Origin: Thermoplasmatota archaeon
GTDB lineage: Archaea; Thermoplasmatota; Thermoplasmata; Lutacidiplasmatales; UBA184
Direction of reading: 5' to 3'
DNA length: 64,000 nucleotides
NCBI GenBank assembly: GCA_036781185.1
Contig: DAIQBL010000001.1
Coordinates: forward strand, 23,369-87,368
Of the stretch, positions 3,227-54,094 are shown piece after piece (the stretch's first letter is position 1; each line of letters starts with the position of its first letter). A program made the translations under genes and the position numbers. The notes beneath the pieces are model-generated. The model was not told the DNA's origin and searched no databases. It saw only the letters and a list, made by a program, of their open reading frames with translations.

Positions 3227-3230
3227 CGCC

Positions 3231-4066: not shown

Positions 4067-5392
4067 GTGCGGCTCCCTCGACGGTCCATGCGGCTCGAGC
4101 GGCCGGTCCTCCAGGTCGCCCTCGACTTCGAGAACCTCTCGCGCGCCGTTCAGGCCGCGACGGAGGCGGTCGCCGGCGGCGCCGACTGGGTCGAGGCCGG
4201 GACGCCGCTCATCAAGAGCGAAGGGCTCGACGCGGTCCGGGCGCTGAAGAAGGCGTTTCCCGCGCACCGGATCGTCGCCGACATGAAGGTGATGGACACC
4301 GGCGCCTTCGAGGTCGAGATCGCCGCCAAGGCGGGGGCTGACCTCGTCACGGTGCTCGGCACCGCGGACGACGACACGATCGCGGAGGCCGTGCGGGGCG
4401 GGCATCTGTACGGCGCGGAGGTCGTGGTCGACCTGCTGAATGTGGCCGACCCGATCGCGCGCGCGAAGCGGGTCGCCGAGCTCGGCGCGGCCGCGGTCTG
4501 CTGGCACATCGGCATCGACATGCAGATGGCCGGACGGACTCCGTTCGAGCAGCTCGAGGGGCTCGCGAAGGCGTCCCCGATCCCGGTCGCCGTCGCCGGG
4601 GGGCTCACCTCGGAGACGGTCGCCGCCGCCACGCGCGCCGGCGCCGGGATCCTGATCGTCGGCGGGGCGATCACGAAGAGCCCGAACATCCAGGCCGCGA
4701 CCGAGGCGGTCCGCCGGGCGATCGACTCGAAGACGGAGGTCGCGAGCGAGCACTTCCGGCGGTTCGCCGAGGCCGACGTCCGGACCGCGTTCGCGAAGGT
4801 CTCCTCCCCGAACCTCTCCGACGCGATGCAGCGCCACGGGGCGATGCACGGCCTCCATGCGCACCTGCCGCTTCCGACGACGAAGGTGATCGGCCCGGCG
4901 GTGACGGTCGTCACGCGCGACGGGGATTGGGCGAAGCCGGTGGAGGCGATCGACCGCGCCGGCGCGGGCGATGTGATCGTCGTCGACGCCGGCGGCGGCA
5001 CCACCGCGGTTTGGGGCGAGCTCGCGAGCTGGAGCGCCCAAGGCCGAGGCGTCGCCGGGGTCGTCATCGATGGCGCGGCGCGGGACCTCGACGCGATCCT
5101 CGAGCTCGGTTTCCCGGTGTTCAGCCGGCACGTCTCGCCGAACGCGGGCGAGCCGAAGGGCCACGGCGAGATCGGCGTGGAGGTCGTGGTCGGGGGCGAG
5201 AAGGTCCGGCCCGGGGACTGGATCGTCGGCGACCTTTCTGGGGTCGTCGTCGTCCCGCGGGAGCGCGCGGCCGAGATCGCCAACCGGGCGCTCGACGTGC
5301 TCGAGCACGAGAACCGGGTTCGCGAGGAGATCCGGCGCGGTTCGACCCTGAGCGCGGTCCAGAAGTTGGAGCGGTGGGAACGTGTCGGCTGA
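4067..5392 (+). CDS. Fusion protein: 3-hexulose-6-phosphate synthase (HPS/KGPDC fold) N-terminal domain plus RraA/MenG-like C-terminal domain
   Basis: The N-terminal half has LQVALDF...VEAGTPLIK...IVADMKVMDTG (HPS). The C-terminal half has GDVIVVDAGGG...VVIDGAARD...GFPVF...PGDWIVGDLSGVVVVP (RraA/MenG-like fold). The true start may be the second Met at about 4088. Confidence 0.75.
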   Translation: MRLPRRSMRLERPVLQVALDFENLSRAVQAATEAVAGGADWVEAGTPLIKSEGLDAVRALKKAFPAHRIVADMKVMDTGAFEVEIAAKAGADLVTVLGTADDDTIAEAVRGGHLYGAEVVVDLLNVADPIARAKRVAELGAAAVCWHIGIDMQMAGRTPFEQLEGLAKASPIPVAVAGGLTSETVAAATRAGAGILIVGGAITKSPNIQAATEAVRRAIDSKTEVASEHFRRFAEADVRTAFAKVSSPNLSDAMQRHGAMHGLHAHLPLPTTKVIGPAVTVVTRDGDWAKPVEAIDRAGAGDVIVVDAGGGTTAVWGELASWSAQGRGVAGVVIDGAARDLDAILELGFPVFSRHVSPNAGEPKGHGEIGVEVVVGGEKVRPGDWIVGDLSGVVVVPRERAAEIANRALDVLEHENRVREEIRRGSTLSAVQKLERWERVG

Positions 5393-7525: not shown

Positions 7526-7960
7526 CTACTTCTTGGCCGCGAAGTGCTTGATGGCCGCGTTGTCCTCATCGTAGGCGTGCGCCAGGTTGGCGAGGACCAT
7601 CTGCTCGAGCTGCGCGGCCGGGATCATCTTCGAGTGGAAGTCCCCGACGACGTTGACGGTCGTCTTCGCGCCGTTCGGGCGGTAGTACATCATGAACTTC
7701 GACCCGGCGAGGGGGCCTTCGAGCGAGTGGACCATCATCGCGAGCGGCGGGAAGTACGTCACGTGGTTGACGACCTTCACCCAGTTCCCCTCGACGTTCT
7801 GCTCCCAGGAGAGGCGCATGCCGCCCTCGGGGTGCGGGCCGCCCTCGACGTTCCGGCGGTCGCTGTGGGACTGGCCGTGGTCGACCGGCGAGTCGATGAA
7901 CTTCCAAACGGTCTCGATCGGCGCGTCAAAGTTGCTTCCGAGGTCTTCGATGTGGGCCAT
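7526..7960 (-). CDS. Hypothetical cytoplasmic protein (144 aa), possibly SRPBCC-like
   Basis: The C-terminal 144 aa of track ORF 7526..9271 has normal composition (MAHIEDLGSNFDAPIETVWKF...). The rest of that ORF is Arg/Glu/Asp-rich antisense to the membrane gene 8099..9427. Confidence 0.5.
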   Translation of the reverse strand: MAHIEDLGSNFDAPIETVWKFIDSPVDHGQSHSDRRNVEGGPHPEGGMRLSWEQNVEGNWVKVVNHVTYFPPLAMMVHSLEGPLAGSKFMMYYRPNGAKTTVNVVGDFHSKMIPAAQLEQMVLANLAHAYDEDNAAIKHFAAKK

Positions 7961-8098
7961 GGTTCGCAAGGCCCCCCGGGCTACTTGAATCGAAGCGGCC
8001 GGAAAGGATACCATCGGTGTCCGGACGACGACGCCGGCCGGGGGTTCGTACCCCGCCGCCTTAAGCGGGCCCCCTCGTAACCGACGACCGACGCCGAC

Positions 8099-9427
8099 AT
8101 GACGGACGAGCCTCCGACCGACGGAACCCTCGGCCGGCTCACGCTCGCCCGGAGCCGGGCGCTCCTGCGGACCCGCGTCGGCGTCCTGATGGTCGCGTTC
8201 GTCGCGATCCTGTACGGGTTCCTGTCGCTCCTGCTCGGCCAGATGCTGGTGCTGGGCCGGACGGACTTCCGATCCGTCCAGGTGACGGTCCTGAACGGTC
8301 AGGGCGCCGCGGCGTGGTGGAACTACCCGGCGCTGATCGTCACCGCCCCCGGGGGCGTCCTGGTCCTCCCGTTCCTCGCAACGATCACGATGGTCGTCGT
8401 CTCGCTCGGGGTCGGCATCGGGATGTCGGTCGGCCTCGTCCTCGCCTACCGATTGCTGCGCCGGAACCGGACCGGGTCGGCGCGCCCGGCCGCGGTCGGG
8501 TCGATCTCGGGGTTGACCCCGGCGATGATCGCGCTGGTCACGCTCGGGGCCTGCTGCTCGACCACGGCCGCTGCGACCGCGGGGATCGGCGTCGTCGCCC
8601 AGGCGAGCGGGGCGACCATCCCGGATCTGCTCGCCAACACCTGGTACCTGAACCTGTTCCAGGTCGGGGTCCTCTGGATCGCGCTCGTGGCCCAAGAGCA
8701 GCTCCTGAGCGTGTACGGCCGGGTGCTCGGCGGAGCCACGGCCGACGGGTCCGTGTCGGACCCGGTGCCGCTCGACGCGCGGTTCGCCGCCGGCGCGGCC
8801 CTCCGGGTGGCGCTCCTCGCGGGCGGGGTGACGTGGGGGCTCGCCACGATCGCCGAGTGGACGACCCCGAACCCGCCGATGGCGACCCCGGCGCTCGCGT
8901 TCCAGTGGCTCGCCCAACACGCCCTCCTGGGCGCGTTCGCGACCGGGGCCGGGCTGTTCGTGCTCGGCACGTATCGCCGCCTCCGGGACGCGGCGACGCC
9001 GGCGGCGAGCCGGATCCTCCGGGGGGCGTTGTTCGTCGGAGGGCTCTCGGTGTTGACCTGGACCCCACCCGTTCTCGCGTCCGCCGGGGTGTTCGGACTC
9101 GTCAACGAGATCCTCGGCGCGTTCGGACGACCCGCGTCGTGGGGGGCGGTCGTTCCGCCGTCCATCGGCCCGGTCGCCCTCGGCCTCCGGTGGCTCCTGC
9201 AGTTCGGATTGCTCGGGGCCTTCGCCGTGATCGCGGCGCTCTCGCCGGAGCTCGCGTTCCTGCCCCTCCAATGGACGACATCGGCCCGCCCGGCCCGGAC
9301 CCGCTCCGAGGACGGCGATGTCGGCGGGCGGTCGACCGCCCCGCCTTCGGTCCGTCCGAGCGGCCCAGGGACGTTCGCCGCGGCGACGATCGCGGCGGTG
9401 GAAGTCCAGACGACGCCGAAGAGCTGA
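8099..9427 (+). CDS. Polytopic integral membrane protein, hypothetical
   Basis: 442 aa with at least 10 hydrophobic helices and Cys/Thr-rich loops. Composition is consistent throughout. Confidence 0.6.
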   Translation: MTDEPPTDGTLGRLTLARSRALLRTRVGVLMVAFVAILYGFLSLLLGQMLVLGRTDFRSVQVTVLNGQGAAAWWNYPALIVTAPGGVLVLPFLATITMVVVSLGVGIGMSVGLVLAYRLLRRNRTGSARPAAVGSISGLTPAMIALVTLGACCSTTAAATAGIGVVAQASGATIPDLLANTWYLNLFQVGVLWIALVAQEQLLSVYGRVLGGATADGSVSDPVPLDARFAAGAALRVALLAGGVTWGLATIAEWTTPNPPMATPALAFQWLAQHALLGAFATGAGLFVLGTYRRLRDAATPAASRILRGALFVGGLSVLTWTPPVLASAGVFGLVNEILGAFGRPASWGAVVPPSIGPVALGLRWLLQFGLLGAFAVIAALSPELAFLPLQWTTSARPARTRSEDGDVGGRSTAPPSVRPSGPGTFAAATIAAVEVQTTPKS

Positions 9428-42082: not shown

Positions 42083-42187
42083 GGCGACGGCCGGGCGCCG
42101 GGGGGCAACGGTCCTACGGGGACCGTTTCGCCCCCTCCCGTCCCCGGTTCAAATACCCCGGGAACGGACTTCGTCGTGCAACCACCC

Positions 42188-42250
42188 GGAAGGACCCCCT
42201 TACATCCCCAAGGAGACGGCACCGCGTCTCGGGAGTGCGGGGGGTCCTTC
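42188..42250. terminator. Nested stem-loop (12-bp outer stem ggaaggaccccc/gggggtccttcc enclosing the hairpin gagacg-gcaccg-cgtctc) between convergent genes
   Basis: Seen directly in the sequence. It sits in the 200-bp gap between the 3-prime ends of 41570..42082 (+) and 42282..42710 (-). Confidence 0.4.
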
Positions 42251-42281
42251 CAACCCTTCTTCCCTTCGATTCCTTCCACGA

Positions 42282-42710
42282 TCAGACCGGCGCGCGCAGG
42301 TGGTACCCCGCGGCGCGGTCGGCCGTGATGTGCCCGGCCCAGGCGAGCATCGGCCACGGGACCTCCCGGGTCAGCAGTGCCCAAACCGAGAACACCGCTC
42401 CCCAGACCAGGAGGTTGTGGAACGTGTTGTACAGCGTCGGCCCCCAGCTGGGCCAGTCCCGGGATCCCCGGGACCCAAGGCCGATCGGCACGAACGCCGC
42501 GATGTCCGGCCAGAGCGCCCAGAAGATCGTCAGGAGAACGCTCGTCAGCGGAAAGTCGTGCAGCACCCCCCATCGCCAGCCGAACAACGCGAGTAGGATC
42601 GCGATCGTCGCGGCCGCGTACTCGGCCCGGTAGAGCGTCGAGTTCAGGCGCAGGAATGCCGGACCCCACGGGGGGGCCGGCGCGTCGGAGCTCCGGATTT
42701 CCACGGCCAC
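42282..42710 (-). CDS. Small membrane protein (about 4 TM), hypothetical
   Basis: A GTG start gives MAVEIRSSDAPAPPWGPAFLRLNSTLYRAEYAAATIAILLALFGW...; the rest of the 394-aa track ORF is Arg-rich junk. Confidence 0.5.
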   Translation of the reverse strand: MAVEIRSSDAPAPPWGPAFLRLNSTLYRAEYAAATIAILLALFGWRWGVLHDFPLTSVLLTIFWALWPDIAAFVPIGLGSRGSRDWPSWGPTLYNTFHNLLVWGAVFSVWALLTREVPWPMLAWAGHITADRAAGYHLRAPV

Positions 42711-43304
42711 GTGAGACCTCCGGATTAGAGAAGCTTGGCCGAACTTCGTCGGGGCATCGGGGCCGGCCCAGTGATTCGACGGTCCCGTGTCCGTGGGAGC
42801 CCTACGGGGAGGGTTCGACCGTTGGCGCGGACCCCCTCCACCGTTCACCGTCCGTCCGCCCGCGAGGGAACGTGACCCCTCGCCCGGTCCCTCGCTCAAC
42901 ACACCCAACGAGCATCGGCCGGACCCCCGTCGCGCGGCTCCCACACCAGGGATCCCTCGCCACCGATCCGCCCGATCCTCCGAACCTCCCCCGTCGTCCG
43001 ACCGGCGCGACCGTCCGTCGCCCCGAGAAGGCCGACCGAACGACCGGACCCCGAGGCGGGCCGGAGCGCGGGGACGCTCCGACCACCGCCGGGCGCTGAG
43101 CGGGCACGCTGCCGGAAGTCGGCCGCCTAGCCGCTCCTCGGCGCGCCTCGGGGTCCGGGATCTTCCCGGTGCCCGCACCGGACCGGGTCGCTCCCAGATT
43201 CTGCTCCCCGACTCCGAGGAGCGGGCGGACAACGGGCGCGGCCCTCGAGCGAACGACCGACCGAGCGGGACGCCCCCCGCGTCCCGACCGTAGCCCGCCC
43301 ACCG

Positions 43305-43670
43305 GTGGTCCGCCGGCGGGAGGGAGGATGGTCCCGAATGTTGACATCGCGAAGCGCCGTACGGCGCCCCCCGGAACCGGTTCGCGCTCCCACACCCGAA
43401 CTCCCTGCGTCCCTTCCCCGCATCCGCCGCCTGGGCCGCGTTCGACTGCCGGTCACCCTCGGCCACCGACCGTGGGCGACCGCCTACCGGATGCCGAACG
43501 GCCGGGTCGTCTGGTGCGTCCGCCTCTGGCAGGACGGCTCCGTCGTCCGCGCCGTGGTCAGCACGGCGGTCGTCCGCTCGTACGCCGAACGATCCGGACT
43601 CGCGCGACTTCTCGCCGAGGTCGAAGCGCTGGCGGAGCCGGAGGGAGGAGCGTGCCCGACGGTCGCGTGA
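43305..43670 (+). CDS. Hypothetical small protein upstream of the VirD4/HerA-like ATPase
   Basis: 121 aa (RVVWCVRLWQDGSVVRAVVSTAVVRSYAERSGLARLLAEVEALAE). It overlaps the next gene start. Confidence 0.4.
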   Translation: MVRRREGGWSRMLTSRSAVRRPPEPVRAPTPELPASLPRIRRLGRVRLPVTLGHRPWATAYRMPNGRVVWCVRLWQDGSVVRAVVSTAVVRSYAERSGLARLLAEVEALAEPEGGACPTVA

Positions 43671-46267
43671 CCTCCGCCGCGTGGTTCGAGCCGCGCAGCG
43701 ACCACTGGTCGGGCCCGTTCCTCGACCGTCTTGCCTCGCTCGCCGCCGCCACTCGGTTCGGGACCGCCTGGCTGGTGGTCCGCCGGACCGGCCTCGCCGG
43801 GGCCGTGGTCCTGGGAAGCGACCCGGTGGCCCGGGACCTGATCGAGTCGGCCGCCAGCCCGTGGCCGGCTCGGGTCACCCCGGTCGGCCCGGCGGCGTTC
43901 GGGTCGCCCTCTCCGCTCGACGGCCTGGCGGCGTTGGCTCGCCCAGGATGGGGCTGGCGAACGACCGAGGCCGGCGTCCCCGCGCCGGACCGAGCAGCCC
44001 CGGACCGCGATCGCGTCCCTCCCGAACTCTCGGTTCCGCCCGGCGGGCGACAGTGCCACTGGTTCTCGACGGGCACCGGCCGGCTCGCGGTTCGTGTCCG
44101 AGTCTGGGCGCGGGCCCAACCGACCGCCGCCCCAGGGTCGCTCGCCCGGCTCGCCCTCGACGGGATCGAGACGTTCCGTCACGCGGGCGTCCCGGCCGAG
44201 CTCCGCGAGCTCCGGAACACGACCGGGCGACGGGAGGCGTGGCGGACCGGGCGGGTCGGCTCGTTCGCCTCAGGCCCGCTCGAACGCCTTCTGCCGGCCG
44301 TCGCGGCGCGGCTCGCCCTCGGCTCGTCCCCGCCGGTGCGGCTCGACGATTCGGCCGTCGGGCGCCACATCGTGGCGGTCGGCGCGTCGGGCGCCGGGAA
44401 GACGTCGTTCCTCGCCGACCTGGCCGCCGCCCGGATCGGGCGCGGCGGCGCGGTCCTCGCCATCGACCTGCACGGCGACCTCGCCCCCGCGATCGTGGCG
44501 CGACTGGCGCCGGCGATCCGGACATCGGTCGTCGCGGTCGACGCCGCCGGTCCGCTCGACCAAGTGCAGGGCGTGCGCCTCCTGGGAGGTCGGAATCAGA
44601 CGGCGGAGGATCCGGGGCCCGCGCACCTCGTGGCGGCCCTGAAGCGCCTCACCTCGGATTCCGGCGACGTCTACTGGGGGTTCCGACTGGAACGGACGCT
44701 CGAGGCGTTCGTGCGGCTCGCCCACGAGGAGGGCGGGGGACTGCTCGACGTGTACGAGCTCCTCACGGACGCCCGTCGGAGGGACGCCGCCCGTCTCACG
44801 ACGCGGGACCGAGCGCTGGCCAACTTTCTGGATGAGATCCCGACCCTGTTGCGGCGCAACCCCGAGTACCTCGCGCCCGCGACCGCGCGCGTCGCGAAGG
44901 TCGCTCTCGCGCCCCGAATCGCGCGGCTGCTCGACCCGGCCGGCCCCGGTCTGCCGGTCGAATCTCTTGTCGGGCGCGGACGGTCGATCCTCTGGCGGAT
45001 CCCGTTCGCGCAGCTCGGACCGGAGGCGGCCAGCTTCGCGGCGACGCTGCTCGTGGCCCACGCGTACTTCGGTCTCGCCGCGCTGGGCCCCGGCCGACCC
45101 GACGAGCTTCGGGTCGCGCTCATCGTCGACGAGGCCTCCGCGCTCTCCCCGCGCCTCCTCGCCGAGATCCTGTCGGAGGGCCGGAAATTCGGCGTCGGGG
45201 CGGTCGTGGCCACGCAGTATCCCGGGCGCCTCGCCCCGGAGGCCCGGGCCGCCGCGGAGGGCGCCGCGGGCACGCACGTCGTGTTCCGCGTCCCCCCGCC
45301 GGTGGCCGCGGCGACGGCGGCCTGGGCCGGCCTCGACCGGTCCGCCGAGGCCTGGCTGCCGGCCCTACCGGACGGCACGGCGGTCGCGGTCCGTTCCGGG
45401 GACTCCGGCTCCCGCGGCGCGATCCAAGTGGCGCGGGGACCGCCCGACGACCCGGCGGCCTGGGAGGAGGTGTGCGAAGCGAGCGCTCTCGCGGCGGCGG
45501 AGTCCGACGGGGAACCCGGCGACGTTCCCCGCACGGTCTCGGACGCCGTCATGTTCTCGCTCGCCGCGGGACTCGGCGACGCGGGCACCCTCGCCGCCCG
45601 GGTCGTCGGGGTTCTCGGAGAACCGGTGGAGCCGGCGGTCGTGAACGAGAGCCTCGTCCGTCTCGGGCGACGTGGCTGGGTGACGAACATCGACGGCCGG
45701 TTCGACCTCACGGACGCCGGCGCGCGGTATCTGGGGGTCGGGGCGCCCACCGGGGCGATCCGCGAAGGCGCGGAGCATCGAGCGCTCCTGTACCACGCGT
45801 TCGGGATCCTCGCCCGCCGGGGCGCCCGGCTGGAGCTGGTCCGGCAGGGGCGGTTCGACCGTCGGCTCCCGGACGCGGTCGTCCGGCTCCTCCCCCCCGG
45901 GGTCGGTCACCGAGGTCCGGCGGAGCTGGCCCGCGCGGTGGATGCGGCGCGCTCGACGTGGGCGTGGCGCTACTTTGGCGGACGAGACGTGGACGTCGAA
46001 GCCGAGGTGAGCGGGGCGCTGCGCCCCGACCGGGTCCGGCGCAATCTGGCGAAGGCATCGGACCAGGGTCATTTTGCCCTGTTCCTCGTCGCGGACCCCG
46101 CGCGGGCGCGACGGATCCGGACCGTCCTCGCCGAAGCGGCGGCGGGAATCGGGACCGCTCAGGTCTGGACGCTCGTCCGGGCCCGGGCGGCGTCGCCGTC
46201 GGCCGGCGAGGGGACGGACGGGAGCGGTGGGGCGGTCCGTGGCGGCAGCCCCCCGCCCTCACCGTAG
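43652..46267 (+). CDS. FtsK/HerA-superfamily P-loop ATPase (VirD4/TraG-coupling-protein-like or DUF87) with a C-terminal winged-helix and extra domain
   Basis: Walker A HIVAVGASGAGKTSF followed by AIDLHGD; Walker B RVALIVDEASAL; and GVGAVVATQYPGRL (TQ-P motif). GTG start at MPDGRVTSAAWFEP. No TM helix. The roughly 350-aa C-terminal extension includes MFSLAAGLGDAGTLAARVVGVLG (wHTH-like). Confidence 0.6.
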   Translation: MPDGRVTSAAWFEPRSDHWSGPFLDRLASLAAATRFGTAWLVVRRTGLAGAVVLGSDPVARDLIESAASPWPARVTPVGPAAFGSPSPLDGLAALARPGWGWRTTEAGVPAPDRAAPDRDRVPPELSVPPGGRQCHWFSTGTGRLAVRVRVWARAQPTAAPGSLARLALDGIETFRHAGVPAELRELRNTTGRREAWRTGRVGSFASGPLERLLPAVAARLALGSSPPVRLDDSAVGRHIVAVGASGAGKTSFLADLAAARIGRGGAVLAIDLHGDLAPAIVARLAPAIRTSVVAVDAAGPLDQVQGVRLLGGRNQTAEDPGPAHLVAALKRLTSDSGDVYWGFRLERTLEAFVRLAHEEGGGLLDVYELLTDARRRDAARLTTRDRALANFLDEIPTLLRRNPEYLAPATARVAKVALAPRIARLLDPAGPGLPVESLVGRGRSILWRIPFAQLGPEAASFAATLLVAHAYFGLAALGPGRPDELRVALIVDEASALSPRLLAEILSEGRKFGVGAVVATQYPGRLAPEARAAAEGAAGTHVVFRVPPPVAAATAAWAGLDRSAEAWLPALPDGTAVAVRSGDSGSRGAIQVARGPPDDPAAWEEVCEASALAAAESDGEPGDVPRTVSDAVMFSLAAGLGDAGTLAARVVGVLGEPVEPAVVNESLVRLGRRGWVTNIDGRFDLTDAGARYLGVGAPTGAIREGAEHRALLYHAFGILARRGARLELVRQGRFDRRLPDAVVRLLPPGVGHRGPAELARAVDAARSTWAWRYFGGRDVDVEAEVSGALRPDRVRRNLAKASDQGHFALFLVADPARARRIRTVLAEAAAGIGTAQVWTLVRARAASPSAGEGTDGSGGAVRGGSPPPSP

Positions 46268-46791
46268 GCGCGGTGGTGCATCTCCTCGAGGACCGCCTGG
46301 CTGAGATAGGTCAGCGCCGCGTCGTTGAGCCGGTCGAGGTGAAGGAGGAGGTAGTGCAGGTAGATCCGCTCGGGACGATGGGACGGTCCGGGCGGGCGTT
46401 CCGGATGCCCCAGGGAGGGGACAGAGTCCGAGGCGACGGTCGCCAACGTCTCGGCATGGTGCTCGGCGTTCTTGCCGTGCAGCGACCGCCCCGTCGGACC
46501 CACGAGCGGCGGGTAAACGCGCGAGATCGGGTCGTCGGGCCCGTCCGAGGCGATCGACGCCGCGCGCGCGCTCTCGGCCGCGGCGTCCGTCTCGAGCCGC
46601 CACTTCGTGTACGGGTGCGCGGGCCGGTTCGGATCCTGGAACTCGGCGATCGGTCGTCCCCCGACGTCCTCGACGATCGACTTCAGGCTCCAGCTGTCGC
46701 GACGCCGGCCGGGCCCATCCATCGAGGGAGCGGGCTCGGCGGACACGAAGTCCGCGAGCCCCGACCCCCGCTCATAAACGTGCGGTTCCAT
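46159..46791 (-). CDS. Hypothetical protein, last gene of the minus-strand T4SS-like operon
   Basis: 210 aa of normal composition. It overlaps the VirB4-like gene by 20 nt, and its 3-prime end overlaps the convergent ATPase gene. Confidence 0.45.
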   Translation of the reverse strand: MEPHVYERGSGLADFVSAEPAPSMDGPGRRRDSWSLKSIVEDVGGRPIAEFQDPNRPAHPYTKWRLETDAAAESARAASIASDGPDDPISRVYPPLVGPTGRSLHGKNAEHHAETLATVASDSVPSLGHPERPPGPSHRPERIYLHYLLLHLDRLNDAALTYLSQAVLEEMHHRAYGEGGGLPPRTAPPLPSVPSPADGDAARARTSVQT

Positions 46792-48439
46792 CGGCCCGCG
46801 CCTCGGCGTCGGTCGGGGAACGGAGCGAGCGGGCGAGGAGCTCGAACTCCGGCGTCGAGGCGACGACCGCGACCGGGAGGTGCGACGGGCCGAACCGCAG
46901 GAGTCCCTCGGAGTACCCCGCCTCCCGGGGGAGCCGGCATTGGGGAAGCCAGCCGGCCTCCGCGTCGGTGAGCGCGAAGAACCGACGGGTCGCCTCGGAG
47001 ACCTCGGCCAGGTGGAGGAGGAGCGTGGCCCGGAGATTCCGCAGGAGCGACCGCCCTCCGTCGGTCCCCAGAAAGTCGTCCGGGTTCTGGCTGAGCAACA
47101 CGACGCCGGTCCGGTAATGCCGGACGTGCCGGACGATCCGGTCGAGGAACTCGGCGGTGGCGGGGTCCCGAGCGAGGAGGTGCGCCTCGTCGATGACGAG
47201 GAGCTTCGGTCGGTCGTCGCGCCGGATCCGTCCGTACAGGGCGTCGAGGACCACCGCGAGGTGGAACGCCCGCTGACCCGCCGGGACCTCGTGCAGGTCG
47301 ACCACGAGCGAGCCGGTCGGCGGGGGCTCGACGGCCACGCGGTCGAGGTGCGCGAGCGATCCGGAGACGAAGACGTCGAGGAGCCCGGCGAGTCGCCCGG
47401 GTCGGTCCGCGGCGAGGACGATCTCCCGGAGTCGGGCGAGCGTCGGCCGCTCGACTCCCGCGTACAGCCGGGCCACCGAGGCGTCGAGAAGCGCGACCTC
47501 CTCGTCCGCGAGCGAGGGGAACGCGGCCCGCAGCGCCGTCACCACCCGGGCCGCCTTCTCCGGTAGGTCGCCGCCGGTCGTGGCGGCGTCGAGCGGGTGA
47601 AAGCGCGCCGGGGCATTTCGTCCGACGCCGACCACGGTCGCCCCGAGCGGGCCGGCGAGGCCGGCGAACTCCCCGAGCGGGTCGACGATGTACACCTCGA
47701 GGCCCGGCGTCATCCAGCGGGTCCGGAGCGCGAGCAGCGCGGCGGCGAACGACTTCCCGGACCCCGTCGCCCCGAACACCCCCCAGGAGTAGCTCGCATG
47801 CCGCCACCGGTCGAGGAACACCGGGGCCGCGTCGTCGAGGAGGAGGCCGACGAGGACCCCGTGCGGCTCGACGATGGCCTCGTCGACGAAGGGGAAGAAC
47901 GCCGCGACCGCGTCGGTCGGGAGGGTCTGCCAGTAGCCGGGCGGCCGCGGCTCGCTTCCGTCGAGCGCCGGAGCGGCGGACGCGGCGGCGGCCTCGTACG
48001 GCGCGGTCGACATCCCGAACCCGAGGGCAGCGAGACGGCGGGCCAGCTCGGCTCGCTCCCGCTCCAAGCTCGCGGGCGATGTCGCGAGGGCGTGGAACGA
48101 GAGGCCGACGCGGAACAGCTGCTGGTCGTTCGCGGCGAGCCGGCGCTCCAGGTCGTGCGCGCTCTCCGCCTCGAGCTCGAGTTCCGGCAGGTCCCGGGCG
48201 CCCCCCGATTCGATCTCTGCCTCAGCAACCACGGCCGCGCTCCGGACCATCGATAGGGCGCGGTCGCGGCCGATTCGGTGCAGCTGGAGGCGGAACTCGA
48301 ACGTTCGGCTCGTGGGGAGGACGCGGGACAGGAACCCGAACGGGACGGCCTTCGGGAGGGTCCGCGCGAGGAGGGTTCCGTCCAGCCGACCCCGTCGGAT
48401 CACGAACCGCGGGGCCTCGTGCTCCGGTCGCCCCGTCAT
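46772..48439 (-). CDS. VirB4/TrbE/CedB-like type-IV-secretion ATPase
   Basis: Walker A VFGATGSGKSF followed by YIVDPLGEF; Walker B KLLVIDEAHLL; and GVVLLSQNPDDF. This is the CagE/TrbE/VirB (AAA_10) pattern. The start is at the internal Met (MTGRPEHEAPRF). Confidence 0.75.
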   Translation of the reverse strand: MTGRPEHEAPRFVIRRGRLDGTLLARTLPKAVPFGFLSRVLPTSRTFEFRLQLHRIGRDRALSMVRSAAVVAEAEIESGGARDLPELELEAESAHDLERRLAANDQQLFRVGLSFHALATSPASLERERAELARRLAALGFGMSTAPYEAAAASAAPALDGSEPRPPGYWQTLPTDAVAAFFPFVDEAIVEPHGVLVGLLLDDAAPVFLDRWRHASYSWGVFGATGSGKSFAAALLALRTRWMTPGLEVYIVDPLGEFAGLAGPLGATVVGVGRNAPARFHPLDAATTGGDLPEKAARVVTALRAAFPSLADEEVALLDASVARLYAGVERPTLARLREIVLAADRPGRLAGLLDVFVSGSLAHLDRVAVEPPPTGSLVVDLHEVPAGQRAFHLAVVLDALYGRIRRDDRPKLLVIDEAHLLARDPATAEFLDRIVRHVRHYRTGVVLLSQNPDDFLGTDGGRSLLRNLRATLLLHLAEVSEATRRFFALTDAEAGWLPQCRLPREAGYSEGLLRFGPSHLPVAVVASTPEFELLARSLRSPTDAEARADGTARL

Positions 48440-48792
48440 CGCTCGACCTCCGGACCGGCCAGCGTGCGCTCCGTCGTAACGGCGAGCGCGGCCGTGGCGA
48501 GTCCGAGGAGGCTCCCGCGGAGTATCGCCCAGGGGGGGACGGCGAAGAGCGCGAACGCCAAGGCCCCCGATACCCCGACCACGACCCAACGGTCGCGTGC
48601 AGGGGACGTCCGAAGCCGGCGGGTCCGCACCCGGACCGCCCAGGCCAGTAGGCCGATCGCCGCGAGCGCCTCGGTCAGTCCGAGGAGGTACGGCTCGAGG
48701 AGGGAGCCGACCCCGGCCAAGGCCCCGAACGCTCCGGCGGCGCGGAGCGGGTCGATCTCGAGCGGCGCGCGGAGCAACCCGCCAATCTTCAC
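48436..48792 (-). CDS. Small membrane protein (3 TM) in T4SS-like operon (CedA2/VirB3-like position)
   Basis: A GTG start overlaps the upstream stop (GTGA). VKIGGLLRAPLEIDPLRAAGAFGALAGVGSLLEPYLLGLTEALAAIGLLAWAVRV. Confidence 0.5.
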   Translation of the reverse strand: MKIGGLLRAPLEIDPLRAAGAFGALAGVGSLLEPYLLGLTEALAAIGLLAWAVRVRTRRLRTSPARDRWVVVGVSGALAFALFAVPPWAILRGSLLGLATAALAVTTERTLAGPEVER

Positions 48793-49565
48793 GGCCGCCG
48801 CTCCGGCAGAAGCGCGAGACGGTCGAGCTCCGCCCTCAGGGCGCGGCCGGTCAATCGCTCCGCGTCGACGCCGAGGACCCTGAGCGAGGCCGACGCGGCG
48901 TTCAGCCGGACCTCCAGCCGGGCCGCGCCGGCGCGGTCGGCGGGCTCCCAGAGGACCAACGCCACGCTCCGGGTGCGCCGGCGACGGACGAGAAGCTCGA
49001 CGACGTCGCGGTAGCCGTCCTGGGCCGTGCCTTCGGCCGATCCGGCGGCGGCCGGAGCGGGTGGCCGGAGCGTCGCGGGGGAGAGCGGTTCCGAGCGGGC
49101 GACCAGGTAGACCGGCCCGTCGAGCGAGGCCAGCCACTGCCGCGTCGCCTCGAACAGGGCCCGGGCATCGGCGGGCGGCAGGTACGCGACCGGCACCCCG
49201 CCGGACCGGAGTACGGCGGCGATCCGGCCGGACCCAACCCGCATCGTCCTAAGCCGGGCCGACGCGGGGGAGGCCGACCCCGACCCGCCCCGGGTCCGGG
49301 TCCGTCGGCGCCATTGCCAGCCGAGGTAGCCGGTGACCCGCTCGTCGAGGGACCGCCCGTCGCGGCGATGGACCGCGACGAGGAATCCCAGGGCGGCGAA
49401 CGGCAGCACCGCGAGCGGTCCCGCGAGCGGGACCGCGACGAGCCCGGCGCACGCGAACCCGGCGAACTTGAGCGCGTCCCGGGCGGAGGGGAACGGTCCG
49501 AGGTGGAGCCGCCGGTCGACCGGCCTCGGGAGAGCGACTTGGCCCGGGGGTGCCTCCTCGATCAT
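48789..49565 (-). CDS. Membrane-anchored hypothetical protein in T4SS-like operon
   Basis: N-terminal two hydrophobic helices (FAGFACAGLVAVPLAGPLAVLPFAALGFLVAV), then a soluble domain. Confidence 0.5.
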   Translation of the reverse strand: MIEEAPPGQVALPRPVDRRLHLGPFPSARDALKFAGFACAGLVAVPLAGPLAVLPFAALGFLVAVHRRDGRSLDERVTGYLGWQWRRRTRTRGGSGSASPASARLRTMRVGSGRIAAVLRSGGVPVAYLPPADARALFEATRQWLASLDGPVYLVARSEPLSPATLRPPAPAAAGSAEGTAQDGYRDVVELLVRRRRTRSVALVLWEPADRAGAARLEVRLNAASASLRVLGVDAERLTGRALRAELDRLALLPERRP

Positions 49566-49569
49566 CGGG

Positions 49570-50712
49570 TCACCGTAGGTCGCGCAGCCGCTCCGGGTGG
49601 TCGCGGTCGAGACCGCCGAACCGCCGCGAGGCGGCCGCGAGTCGGGCGCCTTTCAGATGGCCGAACAGCGCCTCGGCGCCCCGCCCGATCCCTTCGGCGG
49701 CGAGGAGCGGAGCCGCGAACGGGAGCGGGGCCCGGACGGCGGCCACGACCCCTCCGGCGGCGGGGCGAACCTTGGACGTCCCCCGAGCGGCCGACGCCAG
49801 AGGGCGACCGATCGACGCGAGCCCGGCGGAGGCCGACGATAGGCCGCGCTCGACCCCACCCGTCAGCGCGCCGCCGGCCGAGGGAAAGCCGATCCGCCCG
49901 AGCTGCACCCCGGCGACGTTGAGGAGCGACGGAGCCCCGAGCGCGATCGCCAGGTAGGCGACGAGGAGGAGGGCCGAGGGCGCGCCGACGGCCAGCTCGA
50001 GCGGGATGACGACCGCGACCGGGAGGAACGCGAGCTCGCCGAACAGGAGCCACGACCGCCGGGCGAGCGGGGCGAGCGCCGGGATGGGCCAGACGAGGCT
50101 GAACGCCGGAAGGAGGACGAGCAGCACCGCCAGCATCGCATCCCGGGCGGCGACGGCGATCGCGAGCAGCAGGACGAGCGAGAACAGCGTGAACGAGAGG
50201 ACGAAGGCGAGAAGTCCGTTGTCCCACGAGAACTTCAGCCCGCCGATCCCGGTGAGGTTGGTCCAGGACTGCCACGCCCCGCCATCGAATCCGGCGACGA
50301 CCGGGTACACCGACCCGGCGACGTCGAGGATCGCGGCCGCCACCGGAACGGTGACGTTCGCCAGCACGACCGACACGACGAGCCGCGGGAGGAGAGACTC
50401 GAGGCGGGTCCGCGTGGGGGAGGTCACGGCCCGGGCCAGGTACACCGCGCCGACCGCGAGCACGACGAGGACGACCGCCGGGTCGACCACGTTCGCGACC
50501 AGGTAGTCGGAGAACTGCGCCGCGAGAGTCAGGAACGACGACGACCCGCCCGAACCCGGACCGAGCAGGGGCGGATACGCCGAAGCGGGGGCGAGCTCCG
50601 GAACGAGGAGGTCGTCGTACGTCGGGAGCGTGACCGCCCACAGGATCCCGGTCAGCGAGGCGAACAGCGCGAACAGGAGGGCCTGGACCGCGTCCGACAG
50701 CGAGGCGCCCAT
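49570..50712 (-). CDS. Polytopic membrane protein, VirB6/TrbL/CedA-like candidate
   Basis: 381 aa from the internal Met (MGASLSDAVQALLFALFASL), with about 8 TM helices and a hydrophilic C-terminus. Confidence 0.55.
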   Translation of the reverse strand: MGASLSDAVQALLFALFASLTGILWAVTLPTYDDLLVPELAPASAYPPLLGPGSGGSSSFLTLAAQFSDYLVANVVDPAVVLVVLAVGAVYLARAVTSPTRTRLESLLPRLVVSVVLANVTVPVAAAILDVAGSVYPVVAGFDGGAWQSWTNLTGIGGLKFSWDNGLLAFVLSFTLFSLVLLLAIAVAARDAMLAVLLVLLPAFSLVWPIPALAPLARRSWLLFGELAFLPVAVVIPLELAVGAPSALLLVAYLAIALGAPSLLNVAGVQLGRIGFPSAGGALTGGVERGLSSASAGLASIGRPLASAARGTSKVRPAAGGVVAAVRAPLPFAAPLLAAEGIGRGAEALFGHLKGARLAAASRRFGGLDRDHPERLRDLR

Positions 50713-50720
50713 CCGGCCCC

Positions 50721-51092
50721 CTAGGCACCGGTCAGGACCCACTGGGCGAGTCCCCAGATCAGGCCGGAGAGCGCGGCCGCGAAGATCAGGGTACCGACGA
50801 GCGCGTCCCGGGCCCGGTCCTTCGCCTGGATCTTCTTCGTCACGTCGTTCGAGAACCAGGAGAGGGCGACCCGGGCCCACACGATGGCGAGCAACCCACC
50901 ACCGGAGAGTCCGAGAAGGACCACGATCCGGTTCACCACCTCCGAGAAGTTTGCGACCGCGGAGCCGTTCGCGCCGGCCGATGTGGCCGGATGGAGCGGA
51001 GCGAGCGGCGGGACGCCGAGCGACGTCCCTCCGACGAATCCGAGGAGCACCAGCGTCAGGGCAGCGAAGGCCGCGGGGAGCGCGGCGGTCAC
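50721..51092 (-). CDS. VirB2/TrbC/TedC-like conjugative-pilin candidate (signal peptide plus two hydrophobic helices joined by a basic loop)
   Basis: MTAALPAAFAALTLVLLGFVGG (signal), helix 1 VVNRIVVLLGLSGGGLLAIVWARVALSWF, basic loop SNDVTKKIQAKDRARDA, helix 2 LVGTLIFAAALSGLIWGLAQWVL. Length 123 aa. Confidence 0.5.
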   Translation of the reverse strand: MTAALPAAFAALTLVLLGFVGGTSLGVPPLAPLHPATSAGANGSAVANFSEVVNRIVVLLGLSGGGLLAIVWARVALSWFSNDVTKKIQAKDRARDALVGTLIFAAALSGLIWGLAQWVLTGA

Positions 51093-52903
51093 GGCGCCCC
51101 CGCGCTCTCATCGGTCGAAGTCGGGACCGAGGTCGGTTCCGGCGTGGGGGGGGCTGCGACCCACCGCACCAGTTCTCGCCCGTCCCCGTCGTCCCCGATC
51201 CGCACGCGCCCGGCTCGACGCCAATAGTCGAGCGCCGAGCCCAGTTGCTCGGAGGTCATGCGACGCTCCTCGGCGAGCAGTTCCAGCGTGGCCCGGTCGA
51301 CGCCGTCCTCGGCGTCTTCGAGGAGCTCTCGGACCGTCGTCCGTCCGGGTCCTTCCGGCGCGGACGGCTTCGGGGTCCGGCGAAGCCTCCGGCCCCATCG
51401 CCGGATCGAGTACCCTCCGACGAGGGCGAAGAGGGCTCCCCCGAGCGCTCCTGCCAGGAGCCATCCGGACGCCGACGGATTTCCGGCGAGCGGCGGGGCC
51501 GGAGCGGCCCCACTCGAGGCGACGTAGAAGGTGAAGGTCACGTTCGCGGAGCGCCCGGTCGCATCCGTCACCGACCCCCGGAGCGTGACGTAGCCCGACG
51601 CCACCGGCTCGATGGTCCAGGGAACGACGCCGGACGCGGAGGTGTTGCCGGCACTCGACTCCCCATCCGATAGGGACAGTCGGTAAGCGTAGGGGGCCAG
51701 CCCCCCGGCGATCGCGGCGCGCACGGCCACTCCCGCGTCGACGCTCGGGTCGGTCGTTCCGAGGGCGACCGTCAGGTTGAGGCCGGCGGCGACGTCGACG
51801 GTCACGTTGGCCGTCACCCGGACGCCCGAGCCGTCGACGAGCGACAGGGGGAACGCGACCGGTCCGACCTCGGCAAACGTGACCGAGAGGCCGATGGGGC
51901 CGTCGTTCGGGAGCATGCCGTCCGAAGGTGATTCGGCGCTGACTCCGCCGGTCGGTTGGGCTTCCCAGGCGAAGGGGGGCGTCCCCCCGGCGACCTCGAC
52001 CGACAGCGGGGTCGGGTATCCGACCTCGGCGAACGGCACGCTCGGTCCGCTGAGCGATGGGCCGGGCGTCGCCCGCCCGACCGGCGTCAGGCCATCGAAG
52101 CTCCGATTCCAGACGTCGACGACGGAGGCGAGGACCCAGACCGGACCGGGGCTCGACGGGACGACCGCGAGCTCGTACGTCCCGTCGGACGGGACGACGG
52201 TCGTGCCGTTCGAGCGACCGTCCACGACGGACCAGTCGACGGTGAACGGGCCGGATCCGGCGGTGAGATTGGCGGAGAAGACGAACGGCACGCCGACGTC
52301 GCCCAGCCCACTCGCGCTCGCCACCTCGAGGAACGGAGCCCCGACGACGTCGATCGTCGTGGTCGCGTACGCGTACGCCCCGGCGTGGTCGCGGACCTCG
52401 AACAGGACTTCAACGGAGCGTACGGCATCGGGGGCGGTCCAGTCGAGGGACCATCCGGAGGTGACGTTCCCCGTTTCGAGGCTCCAGAACGGATCGTACG
52501 GTTCGGCACCCCCCGAGGCCGTCCCGGCCAGCCTCACGGTGACGCCGACGTCGACCCGCGACGGGGCCGAAACGATCGTCGCCACGAGCGCTCCGGTGCT
52601 GGGTCGACTCCCGATGGTCCGGCTCGGGTGCGATTCCGGGGGGGCGGCGTCGAGCGCCGAGCCGAGGGTGGGGTTCCCGGCGCGCGGCGGAGTCGTCGGG
52701 AGTCGCGACTCCGTCGCCGAGGGAACGAGAACGGGTGTCGCCGTTCGGTGGGTCGGGAGACCGACCAAGGGCGGGAGGTCGGGCCGAGTCGGTGGGATCC
52801 CCGGCACTCCGCCGGGGAGGGCGCTCAGGATCAGCAGGGCGGCGACGGGTCCAACCAGCCACGGGTCCACGGTTCGCGTCGAGGGCGTTCGCACAGCAAC
52901 CAC
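51089..52903 (-). CDS. Secreted surface protein with PKD/Ig-like repeats and a C-terminal TM anchor plus a cytoplasmic tail; first gene of the T4SS-like operon
   Basis: Signal peptide, repeated beta-rich segments with N-x-S/T sequons, a C-terminal TM (GWLLAGALGGALFALVGGYSI) and a tail containing ELLAEERRMTSEQLGSALDYWRRAGRV. Confidence 0.55.
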   Translation of the reverse strand: MVAVRTPSTRTVDPWLVGPVAALLILSALPGGVPGIPPTRPDLPPLVGLPTHRTATPVLVPSATESRLPTTPPRAGNPTLGSALDAAPPESHPSRTIGSRPSTGALVATIVSAPSRVDVGVTVRLAGTASGGAEPYDPFWSLETGNVTSGWSLDWTAPDAVRSVEVLFEVRDHAGAYAYATTTIDVVGAPFLEVASASGLGDVGVPFVFSANLTAGSGPFTVDWSVVDGRSNGTTVVPSDGTYELAVVPSSPGPVWVLASVVDVWNRSFDGLTPVGRATPGPSLSGPSVPFAEVGYPTPLSVEVAGGTPPFAWEAQPTGGVSAESPSDGMLPNDGPIGLSVTFAEVGPVAFPLSLVDGSGVRVTANVTVDVAAGLNLTVALGTTDPSVDAGVAVRAAIAGGLAPYAYRLSLSDGESSAGNTSASGVVPWTIEPVASGYVTLRGSVTDATGRSANVTFTFYVASSGAAPAPPLAGNPSASGWLLAGALGGALFALVGGYSIRRWGRRLRRTPKPSAPEGPGRTTVRELLEDAEDGVDRATLELLAEERRMTSEQLGSALDYWRRAGRVRIGDDGDGRELVRWVAAPPTPEPTSVPTSTDESAGAP

Positions 52904-52968: not shown

Positions 52969-53619
52969 TCAGAGGTCGATCGGGAGCGCCACGTGCTCCC
53001 GGGAGAACGGCCCGAGGTCCACGCCGGCCCCGACCCGATGGCCGGCGTCCGTCAGCTCGCGACGGGCCAGCCGCGCCACCTCGCCAGGCGCCCTACGCTG
53101 CGTGACCGAGCGGATCTTCAGCATGAGAAGTCCGGTCCGCGCCCGGCACGTCACCGCGTTCTCGCGGTAGATCCTCGGCTGATCCCGCTGCGCCACGTCC
53201 TGGTAGAGGAGGTCCACCGGGCCGACGTCGGCGGCGTATCGCTCCGGGAGCTGGGCGTCCGCGAGGATCGGGAGCACGTTCGAGCGACGCCGGGCGAGTG
53301 CGAGCAGGGGCGCGAACGAGGGCGGGCTCTTCTCGATCGCGAAGATCGTGGCATCCGGAAGAGCGTCAGAGAGATGGCTCACCGTCGTCCCGTGGGCGGC
53401 GCCGAGATAGAGAACGGTCCGAACGCCCTGGAACAGGGGAAACGGTTCGGCCTTGCCGAGGTACGCGGCGAGCTTCGACCGCCAGGGGTCCCATCGGCGG
53501 AACTCGGAACCGGACTCCGAGCGGAGGTCTTCGCCGTACACCGCCTCGCCGGGGACGGCGTTCCGTGTGTACAGGTCGCGCCCGATCCGGTACACCCCGG
53601 GCCAGCCGGTCGGCTCCAC
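52969..53619 (-). CDS. flpA: Fibrillarin-like rRNA/tRNA 2'-O-methyltransferase
   Basis: GVYRIG...AVYGE...RRWDPWRSKLAA...VLYLGAAHGTTVSHLSD...IFAIEKSP is the canonical fibrillarin pattern. No Nop5 or L7Ae gene lies adjacent. Confidence 0.8.
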   Translation of the reverse strand: MEPTGWPGVYRIGRDLYTRNAVPGEAVYGEDLRSESGSEFRRWDPWRSKLAAYLGKAEPFPLFQGVRTVLYLGAAHGTTVSHLSDALPDATIFAIEKSPPSFAPLLALARRRSNVLPILADAQLPERYAADVGPVDLLYQDVAQRDQPRIYRENAVTCRARTGLLMLKIRSVTQRRAPGEVARLARRELTDAGHRVGAGVDLGPFSREHVALPIDL

Positions 53620-53629
53620 GATCGCCCCG

Positions 53630-54094
53630 CTACCTCAGCCGGACGAGCAGTTCGACCTCGACCGAGGCCCCGAGCGGGAGCGACGCGACGCCCATCGAGA
53701 CCCGCGCCGGCCGACCGTCCTCGCCGAAGACGCGGATGAGCAACTCGGTCGCGCCGTTGGCGACGTCGGCGTGCTGGGTGAACTCCGGTGTGGACGCGAC
53801 GTACACGGCCACTCGCACGACGCGGGCGACCCGGTCGAGCGTCCCGAGCTCGGCCGAGAGCGCGCTCAGCGCCTGCAAGGCGGCCTGCTCGGCGGCCAGC
53901 TTCGCCTGGGCCAGCTCCACCGTGCGGCCCACGATCCCCGGGTGGACCGGGCGGCCGTCGACGTGGGGGATTTGGCCGGCGACGTACGCATGGTCCCCGT
54001 CGACGACGACCGGGCGGTACGTACCCGCCGGCCTCGGCGGTGGAGGGAGCGTGACCCCGAGCGCGCGCAGCCGCTCCGCGACGTCGGGAGCCAT
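53630..54094 (-). CDS. RidA/YjgF/L-PSP-family protein
   Basis: 154 aa with DRVARVVRVAVYVAS...ARVSMGVASLPLGASVEVE, characteristic of the Rid family C-terminus. Confidence 0.7.
   Translation of the reverse strand: MAPDVAERLRALGVTLPPPPRPAGTYRPVVVDGDHAYVAGQIPHVDGRPVHPGIVGRTVELAQAKLAAEQAALQALSALSAELGTLDRVARVVRVAVYVASTPEFTQHADVANGATELLIRVFGEDGRPARVSMGVASLPLGASVEVELLVRLR

Follow-up and report, generated by a model that had tools for sequence, protein, structure and literature searches.

A soluble VirD4/TrwB-type ATPase with a C-terminal winged helix and a putative nuclease domain: a possible DNA-coupling motor encoded on Thermoplasmata chromosomes

A 64,000-nt stretch of DNA from a Thermoplasmatota archaeon (contig DAIQBL010000001.1; this whole stretch is referred to as the window, and coordinates are positions in it unless another locus is named) carries the gene of an ATPase with an unusual C-terminal module. 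It is proposed, at about even odds (roughly 0.5), that this protein is the Thermoplasmata chromosomal version of the archaeal VirD4/TraG/TrwB-type coupling ATPases that have no membrane anchor, and that it acts as the DNA-processing and coupling motor of a type IV secretion system (T4SS) resembling Ced/Ted. This reading is supported by the C-terminal domain of the protein, which was found solely with ATPases of the type IV coupling protein (T4CP) class, some of them in T4SS-like clusters or on plasmids. The gene, its parts as defined with the help of AlphaFold2 (AF2) models, including the predicted local distance difference test (pLDDT), and its small upstream partner are the following.

43652..46267, + strand: whole gene, encoding a soluble ATPase of the T4CP/HerA class (871 aa) that carries a winged helix and a nuclease-like domain at its C-terminal end
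43652..44326, + strand (residues 1–225): N-terminal alpha/beta domain, predicted soluble, AF2 pLDDT mostly >85 except in loop 102–124
44327..45436, + strand (residues 226–595): P-loop ATPase core, from motifs, Pfam and Foldseek
44615..44974, + strand (residues 322–441): all-alpha insertion, a helical bundle between Walker A and Walker B (AF2)
45530..45730, + strand (residues ~627–693): winged helix-turn-helix (wHTH), three helices and a beta-hairpin wing in both AF2 models
45740..46195, + strand (residues 697–848): C-terminal alpha/beta domain, putative Mg-dependent nuclease with a PD...ExE (D-E-E) signature
43338..43670, + strand: small basic partner, 110 aa, net charge +9, its ATG preceded by GGAGGGAGG

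The G+C content of the window is about 73%, and long open reading frames (ORFs) are present in all frames. Codon-position G+C was therefore used to decide which of them are coding. In the ATPase frame, the G+C content of the third codon position is 0.84–0.94 from about 43650 to the stop, and upstream of 43650 the periodicity in this frame is weak or absent. The start codon is the GTG at 43652, with a GGAGG 8–12 nt upstream, and an independent public gene call (P0001) has the same ends, 871 aa and 100% identity. The 3' end of the gene overlaps that of a 210-aa gene on the opposite strand (46159..46791) by 109 nt. A 91-nt tRNA-Pro(GGG) called by ARAGORN at 43770..43860 (+) was rejected as a false positive, as it has no Rfam tRNA match and lies inside the G+C-rich coding sequence of the ATPase.

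The catalytic motifs of the motor are intact. Walker A reads GASGAGKT (residues 244–251; 44381..44404) and Walker B reads ALIVDE (residues 489–494; 45116..45133), followed by EGRKFG and ATQYPGR, and the residues of all four motifs are invariant in an alignment of 59 homologues with 39–69% identity. The AF2 model of the ATPase that was built on this alignment (mean pLDDT 86.7, predicted template modelling score 0.80) shows an N-terminal domain, the P-loop core, a linker helix with the winged helix, and the C-terminal alpha/beta domain, after which a disordered tail follows. When the whole model was compared with the PDB using Foldseek, the best match was TrwB (1e9r; E 2e-9, target TM score 0.61, ~416 columns), and HerA and VirB4 ranked next. 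The Pfam family TrwB_AAD_bind scored 25.4 bits (cut-off 20.5) in a match that is only local (residues 233–278); in the homologue P0011 it is aligned over residues 230–552, and it is the commonest Pfam match across the family. The equivalog models of HerA, CedB, CedD and TraD gave scores of about 20 bits against cut-offs of 500–970, including 23.7 bits for the HerA model NF040937 (cut-off 800) and 20.6 bits for NF040819 (cut-off 970). Since TrwB tops the Foldseek ranking, TrwB_AAD_bind exceeds its cut-off and the HerA, Ced and TraD equivalogs fall far below theirs, the motor falls into the VirD4/TraG/TrwB-HerA-VirB4 branch, where its closest neighbours are the coupling proteins, whose membrane anchor it lacks. 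No 19-residue segment has the hydropathy of a membrane helix, the maximum (1.64) lying in a buried core helix. A preliminary description of this DNA had placed the protein in the FtsK/HerA superfamily, in its VirD4/TraG/HerA branch, and had stated that N-terminal transmembrane helices are lacking; the intact Walker A, Walker B and TQ motifs and the hydropathy values bear out both statements. A full-length match to a canonical TraG/VirD4 protein with cryptic transmembrane segments was looked for and not found.

Like the bacterial T4CPs (TrwB of R388, VirD4, TraD/TraG), the ATPase combines an FtsK/HerA-superfamily P-loop motor with, according to the model, an all-alpha insertion. Unlike them, it has an unrelated soluble N-terminal domain of 225 residues instead of a transmembrane anchor, it adds the wHTH and the D-E-E domain, and its gene lies on the chromosome, outside any operon of T4SS or relaxase genes. 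The N-terminal domain is fast-evolving and mixed alpha/beta in the model, and no relatives of it were detected in Pfam, PHROG or PDB searches. It was compared with the HAS-barrel by family searches only, which gave no match. Two other candidates were rejected: an N-terminal domain shared with VirB4, as hhalign to the VirB4 of the window aligns the ATPase core only, and a counterpart of DUF8128 (which precedes T4CP-like relatives, see below), as no match to this family was obtained with the small ORF or with the N-terminal domain.

An ATPase core followed by a C-terminal winged helix also mirrors the alpha-beta-gamma order of FtsK and the layout of Streptomyces TraB. The protein could thus be a translocase of double-stranded DNA that serves chromosome segregation or dimer resolution, its winged helix guiding it in the way the gamma domain guides FtsK, and its being encoded by a single-copy conserved chromosomal gene would fit such a role. 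However, no membrane or divisome anchor was found, and the Pfam family FtsK_SpoIIIE does not match the window ATPase and gives only weak local P-loop matches in homologues (E ~1e-3). The catalytic-looking extra domain would have no role in such a translocase, and relatives of the protein occur in T4SS contexts. This explanation is very improbable.

The C-terminal extension of the ATPase comprises ~275 residues. The preliminary description had counted about 350 extra residues here, with a winged helix and a further domain that might be nuclease-like or serve in oligomerisation; both domains are present. For the winged helix, Foldseek gave matches to MarR/IclR regulators and to wHTH domains of O-methyltransferases, and Pfam gave weak matches to HVO_A0261_N. 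The strings DVDVEAEV and HFALFLVAD, to which attention had been drawn, both lie inside the alpha/beta domain that follows. In 19 sequences with 21–28% identity to that of the window, H709, Q732, D741, E783 and E785 of this domain are invariant, and K801 is nearly so. The predicted order of elements is an alpha-helix (with E705 and H709), a beta-strand, a second beta-strand after P740-D741, two inserted helices, a beta-strand with E783-A-E785, a helix with K801, and then beta, alpha and beta. Judged from the model, this order is compatible with a PD-(D/E)xK core in its D...ExE form, which is known from BamHI.

The conserved residues look catalytic, and sequence searches add no nuclease to this picture. 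The domain has no match in Pfam, PDB, PADLOC or PHROG, two profiles made from it (A5 and A6) found nothing in the PDB, and no PD-(D/E)xK or NurA match emerged from the profile and structure searches, which did recover the wHTH. With the Pfam profiles MOB_C and Replic_Relax, at E up to 1–5, there was no match for the window domain, for 31 family members or for eight remote relatives. A comparison with CloDF13 gave HMM (hidden Markov model) scores at noise level, the mob region of the record used being without a clean MobC ORF.

The lack of any fold or sequence match of the domain to a nuclease is what one would expect if the protein were a T4CP-like motor whose C-terminal domain serves in docking, oligomerisation or substrate recognition, with other proteins processing the DNA. 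The C-terminal extensions of bacterial T4CPs are typically substrate-recognition modules, such as the TraM-recognition tails of TraD, and the family name TraG-D_C occurs among the relatives of the domain. However, every residue that stays invariant at 21–28% identity (H, Q, D, E, E, K) is polar or charged, while hydrophobic core positions vary, which is the pattern of an active site rather than of an interface. In addition, the modelled alpha-beta-beta-beta-alpha-beta order, with a D ahead of the second strand and E-x-E within the third, would be the PD-(D/E)xK topology. A non-nuclease role is accordingly considered rather unlikely.

More than 230 homologues of the ATPase were found, and all named ones come from metagenome genomes labelled 'Thermoplasmata archaeon'. 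Nearly all are 830–900 aa long with an identical architecture; the closest named genome is that of Candidatus Lutacidiplasma silvani (68% identity). Their source annotations are 'DUF87', 'DUF853' or 'type IV secretion system DNA-binding domain-containing protein'. By inference, the family is probably arCOG04816.

To find relatives of the C-terminal domain, its HMM profile was searched against 1.84 billion representative proteins. This yielded 104 proteins, of which about 90 belong to the same ATPase family. The remote matches (P0318 to P0334, 740–2060 aa) are all ATPases that match TraG-D_C, TrwB_AAD_bind, T4SS-DNA_transf, DUF87 or AAA_10, so outside the family the domain was found by HMM search solely at the C-terminal side of TraG/VirD4-like ATPases. 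One acidic relative of haloarchaeal type lies in a T4SS-like cluster with PrgI_like/TraC-like, AAA_10 (VirB4-like) and DUF8128 proteins, and a second remote relative is likewise preceded by DUF8128. A tblastn search with the C-terminal domain of such a relative identified genes annotated as T4CPs on at least 29 plasmids of haloarchaea, among them pNG600 of Haloarcula marismortui. MOB-suite typed each of the 29 as 'non-mobilizable', which means that no relaxase was recognised on them.

VirD4-like ATPases without transmembrane segments have already been noted in archaea (PMC5155288, PMC13532300). In the Thermoplasmatales (Cuniculiplasma), an ATPase of the TraG/TraD/VirD4 family (arCOG04816) is encoded at a locus apart from the VirB4 cluster (PMC5155288), and VirD4 homologues without transmembrane segments were described in haloarchaea (PMC13532300). 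Like the window ATPase, these proteins (arCOG04816, those of haloarchaeal plasmids and that of Thermococcus pT33-3) are soluble, and they are encoded with or near VirB4 (PMC5155288, PMC13532300, PMC12857230). The haloarchaeal plasmid homologues also share the C-terminal domain, which is not mentioned in these three accounts. The window ATPase differs in its length (871 aa versus 950–2400 aa), its fixed chromosomal place, its own N-terminal domain and its small partner.

The gene of this small partner overlaps the ATPase start by 19 nt in the window and by 4–22 nt across loci. The loci compared here and below come from genomes in GTDB, from look-ups and from a metagenome scan of 80 loci, and the count of small ORFs covers the 76 with enough upstream sequence. 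The preliminary description had reported a coupled ORF of 121 aa (43305..43670). Its translational coupling and its conservation stand, and the start is more likely the ATG at 43338 than the GTG at 43305, because GGAGGGAGG precedes this ATG and the homologues are 104–111 aa long. The family of the small protein comprises 315 members, all from Thermoplasmata and of 100–111 aa apart from a few that are miscalled. They have a disordered N-terminus and a conserved core, P(D/N)GR..W..RLW, and the identity in distant loci is 34–45%; there is no match in Pfam, NCBIfam, PADLOC or PHROG. Of the 76 loci, 62 have the small ORF immediately upstream of the ATPase gene, and in three further genomes the two genes bear consecutive NCBI locus tags (L3J68_04575/04580, ACRECT_08935/08940 and WB873_10105/10110). 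The linkage suspected at the outset is thus conserved, and not universal. As a subgroup of the ATPase loci is without it, the small partner is dispensable or replaced in some lineages. A 218-aa helix-turn-helix (HTH) protein of locus L097 was tried as such a replacement and rejected, since it occurs in just one of the 14 loci that lack the small ORF. By analogy only, the small protein resembles relaxosome accessory proteins in position, size and charge.

The neighbourhood of the ATPase gene is stable. In 58 of 61 loci the gene of an HxlR regulator lies upstream of it, and in 66 of 71 that of a LigT-type 2H phosphoesterase follows 20–25 nt downstream, with a HhH-GPD glycosylase nearby. The short distance between the ATPase and LigT genes suggests that small ORF, ATPase and LigT form a three-gene operon in most genomes. 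Farther out, the same housekeeping genes follow (Fe-ADH, PhoU, sarcosine-oxidase-like, DAO, DUF4147, MFS, HhH-GPD and SHMT). The LigT gene was located as follows in three annotated loci.

L005, 12615..13154: LigT-type 2',5' RNA ligase/2H phosphoesterase, following the ATPase
L007, 12574..13098: the same
L095, 12703..13242: the same

This conserved and vertically inherited housekeeping setting, with LigT so close downstream and HhH-GPD adjoining, could also be that of a stand-alone helicase-nuclease for DNA repair or recombination, a fused analogue of HerA-NurA that processes chromosomal DNA ends without any T4SS. This is the main rival explanation. The EGRKFG and TQ motifs and the weak matches to HerA models fit it, and a ring ATPase fused to or partnered with a nuclease follows the logic of HerA-NurA and HerA-DUF4297, which were among the PDB matches. 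More generally, in HerA-NurA, the HerA-nuclease defence complexes and TdtA with its NurA-like partner, a ring ATPase of the same superfamily works with a nuclease on DNA. In TdtA of the Thermus element ICETh1, this is a membrane-associated HerA-like pump, and DNA donation needs the co-encoded nucleases (PMC5365140). The HerA systems differ from the window ATPase in that NurA or DUF4297, which provides the nuclease there, is a protein on its own and has another fold. HerA has a HAS-barrel as its N-terminal domain, and the N-terminal domain of the window ATPase is mixed alpha/beta in the model. Several results argue against the repair explanation: the sole detectable relatives of the C-terminal domain sit on T4CP-type ATPases in T4SS-like clusters and on plasmids; the best fold match is TrwB, not HerA, and the helical insertion is TrwB-like; HerA equivalogs score ~24 bits against cut-offs of 800–970; and no NurA, Mre11 or Rad50 gene lies around the ATPase in the window or at the annotated loci L005, L007, L009, L010, L095 and L097. 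A repair enzyme is therefore thought to be unlikely, if still worth serious attention.

As a further rival, the protein might be a HerA-type NTPase of anti-phage defence to which a nuclease effector would be fused, with the small protein as its regulator. The combination of ATPase, nuclease and small partner resembles HerA-DUF4297 and HerA-SIR2, and a HerA-type defence NTPase had been suggested earlier. PADLOC indeed gave matches to mad8 (E 2e-13) and to HerA models. However, the mad8 model matches the neighbouring VirB4 even better (E 8.5e-18), which shows that the match is generic for ATPases, and there is no defence-specific domain. The gene keeps to one place, flanked by HxlR and LigT, in nearly all of some 90 loci, which is the reverse of what a variable defence island would show. 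With its housekeeping neighbourhood and only generic PADLOC matches, the suggestion did not hold up, and a defence function is highly improbable.

The possible partner machinery is encoded at a second locus, which in the window lies next to the ATPase. The features concerned are listed here.

2726..3226, - strand: LigT, separated from the ATPase by an inversion
3285..4016, - strand: N6_N4 methyltransferase
4088..5380, + strand: OMP decarboxylase
46159..46791, - strand: 210-aa gene with coding periodicity, last of the VirB4 cluster, at the inversion junction and outside the ATPase module
46772..48439, - strand: VirB4-like ATPase, 555 aa (NCBIfam conju_CD1110 VirB4-like, E 3e-36)
48789..52903, - strand: rest of the T4SS-like cluster, with a 258-aa membrane protein, a TrbL/VirB6-like protein, a pilin-like protein and a 604-aa surface protein
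~49603..50688, - strand: TrbL/VirB6-like protein, by tblastn to genes of L096, in which a 373-aa product matches Pfam TrbL_3
50721..51092, - strand: pilin-like protein with two transmembrane segments, from its hydrophobic segments
52969..53634: fibrillarin, flanking the VirB4 cluster

The T4SS-like cluster (46159..52903, -) comprises six or seven genes, those of small proteins among them, and occupies the same place beside fibrillarin, RidA and DUF885 in distant genomes. Because of this constant chromosomal position, it has the appearance of a Ced/Ted-like system passed on vertically in soil and peat Thermoplasmata, not of a mobile element. The VirB4-like ATPase has more than 362 homologues in Thermoplasmata, and a homologue of the 210-aa gene follows VirB4 in L094 and L096 without an ATPase of the present family nearby. 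Both ATPase families occur widely among one and the same group of metagenome genomes. In the window lineage and in two distant genomes, a single contig carries both loci. In the two distant genomes they are on the same strand, 62 kb apart in GCA_022750155.1 and 41–43 kb apart in GCA_049280295.1. The VirB4 cluster is flanked in both of these genomes by fibrillarin/RidA/DUF885 and, on the other side, by the N6_N4 methyltransferase and OMP decarboxylase. It is possibly the functional partner machinery of the ATPase. No relaxase gene was found.

At the far end of the block in the window, the ATPase gene (+) abuts the last gene of the VirB4 cluster (-). This convergent layout is the product of a rearrangement, since a single inversion explains the gene order: turning the ~43-kb block between the ATPase and VirB4 loci around once yields exactly the order found in the window. 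Relative to other Thermoplasmata genomes, the breakpoints lie at about 3226..3285 and about 46159..46267. The inversion moved LigT and HhH-GPD to the far end and set the ATPase gene tail-to-tail with the VirB4 cluster, and the overlap of the two 3' ends sits at its junction. The preliminary description had implied from the adjacency that the ATPase is linked to the VirB4 operon. A functional linkage on this ground was rejected.

Taken together, a number of observations speak against a coupling motor with a built-in nuclease. VirB4 is found downstream of the ATPase in just 3 of 49 loci, all of them close relatives of the window, so that there is no operonic link in most genomes, and its adjacency here is an artefact of the inversion. 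Neither a membrane anchor nor a docking partner was identified for the ATPase. The LigT operon partner and the HhH-GPD neighbour could equally mean nucleic-acid repair. The small partner is absent from 14 of the 76 loci, also when the upstream region was scanned with its HMM. As for the C-terminal domain, Foldseek against the PDB and BFVD gave only matches that are insignificant or driven by the wHTH, so that the nuclease fold is unconfirmed, and there was no HMM match to any nuclease or MOB_C family.

Upstream of the operon, two further elements were observed. Just downstream of the HxlR gene, at about 42177..42262 (+), lies a structured non-coding element of ~85 nt that is a candidate for a new small RNA of these Thermoplasmata. 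It is preceded by a TATA-like TTCAAATA at 42148..42155 (+) and is conserved in 69 related loci, in each case on the same strand. Of the 18 base pairs predicted by RNAalifold, 14 show compensatory changes. The structure has an outer stem and an inner hairpin with a conserved GCACCG loop; the internal-loop strands ACAUCGCC and GGCGUGCG are conserved as well. There is no Rfam match. The region between this RNA and the small ORF is prone to insertions, and the distance from the RNA to the ATPase is 0.5–4.3 kb. The window has a DUF4260 membrane-protein gene in this gap (42282..42701, -), L010 has a nucleotidyltransferase/HepT toxin-antitoxin pair (7900..8690), and L097 (1825..2481) and L065 have the 218-aa HTH protein. 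In the loci without the small ORF (L035, L037, L038, L040, L065, L073, L082 and seven others), about 0.5 kb separates the RNA from the ATPase start.

The second element is a spacer of ~600 nt upstream of the small ORF (42740..43337, +), which is C-rich (42% C), has no codon periodicity and is conserved at 70–74% in close relatives. It could be a promoter, leader or protein-binding region. The hexamer CGACCG occurs eight times in it, against ~1.7 expected, and short repeats of the CGACCGG type are present in the window and L001 and in none of the distant loci. As signs of a region resembling an origin of transfer (oriT), these repeats are weak evidence.

The proposed coupling motor would work as follows. 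The ATPase would form a hexameric ring that translocates DNA, onto which it would be placed by its winged helix. The D-E-E domain, with a putative PD-(D/E)xK-like centre of the BamHI/MOB_C type, would nick or cut the DNA, and the small basic partner may assist in the manner of relaxosome accessory factors. DNA would then pass from this complex into the VirB4/VirB6(TrbL)/pilin apparatus encoded at the separate conserved chromosomal locus, or in the opposite direction, and the two together would constitute a domesticated DNA-exchange system comparable to Ced/Ted. The latter are chromosomally fixed, T4SS-derived systems of archaeal DNA exchange with VirB4-class ATPases, a VirB6-like channel and a VirB2-like pilin, in which additional ATPase genes (cedD) are found at separate loci (PMC9905601, PMC11868833). 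CedB and CedD themselves are not close counterparts of the window ATPase: they are membrane-anchored, HerA/VirB4-like and without a wHTH or nuclease-like domain, and their NCBIfam models score ~20 bits against it, with cut-offs of 600–700.

The layout of the C-terminal module has a parallel among relaxases. MOB_C relaxases (TraX of pAD1, MobC of CloDF13) consist of an N-terminal wHTH and a restriction-endonuclease-like, BamHI-like domain with a D-E-E metal motif (PMC12857230, PMC6736028). This is also the layout of residues ~627–848 of the window ATPase, where a wHTH is followed by the domain with the invariant D741, E783 and E785. However, the likeness is in layout alone: no homology is detectable by sequence, and the module is fused to a coupling ATPase rather than being a separate protein. 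In archaeal conjugative plasmids and Ced/Ted, VirB4- and VirD4-like ATPases are present and no relaxase has been recognised (PMC9905601, PMC12857230), which makes the wHTH and D-E-E module a candidate for the absent nicking activity. It is tentatively suggested, as a possibility that should be held well short of conviction, that this module on archaeal VirD4-like ATPases, both here and on haloarchaeal plasmids of conjugative type, is the equivalent of a relaxase, a MOB_C-like nickase of restriction-endonuclease fold built into the motor. In soil and peat Thermoplasmata, this nickase and translocase would, along with the small basic partner, have been domesticated together with the chromosomal VirB4/VirB6/pilin apparatus to export or import chromosomal DNA.

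In the searchable literature, no description appears to exist of the conserved wHTH and D-E-E module on such ATPases, of its likeness in layout to MOB_C relaxases, or of the dedicated small protein encoded with them. The family bears on the question of how the DNA of archaeal plasmids and of Ced/Ted is nicked and passed to the channel, and it singles out one domain with six conserved residues that is common to chromosomal genes of Thermoplasmata and at least 29 haloarchaeal plasmids. If this domain does not nick DNA, the ATPase stays a well-defined, uncharacterised member of the VirD4-like ATPases. If it does, the absence of an archaeal relaxase would be explained, a marker for finding archaeal conjugative elements would be at hand, and many uncultured soil Thermoplasmata would carry a complete, vertically inherited DNA-exchange system.

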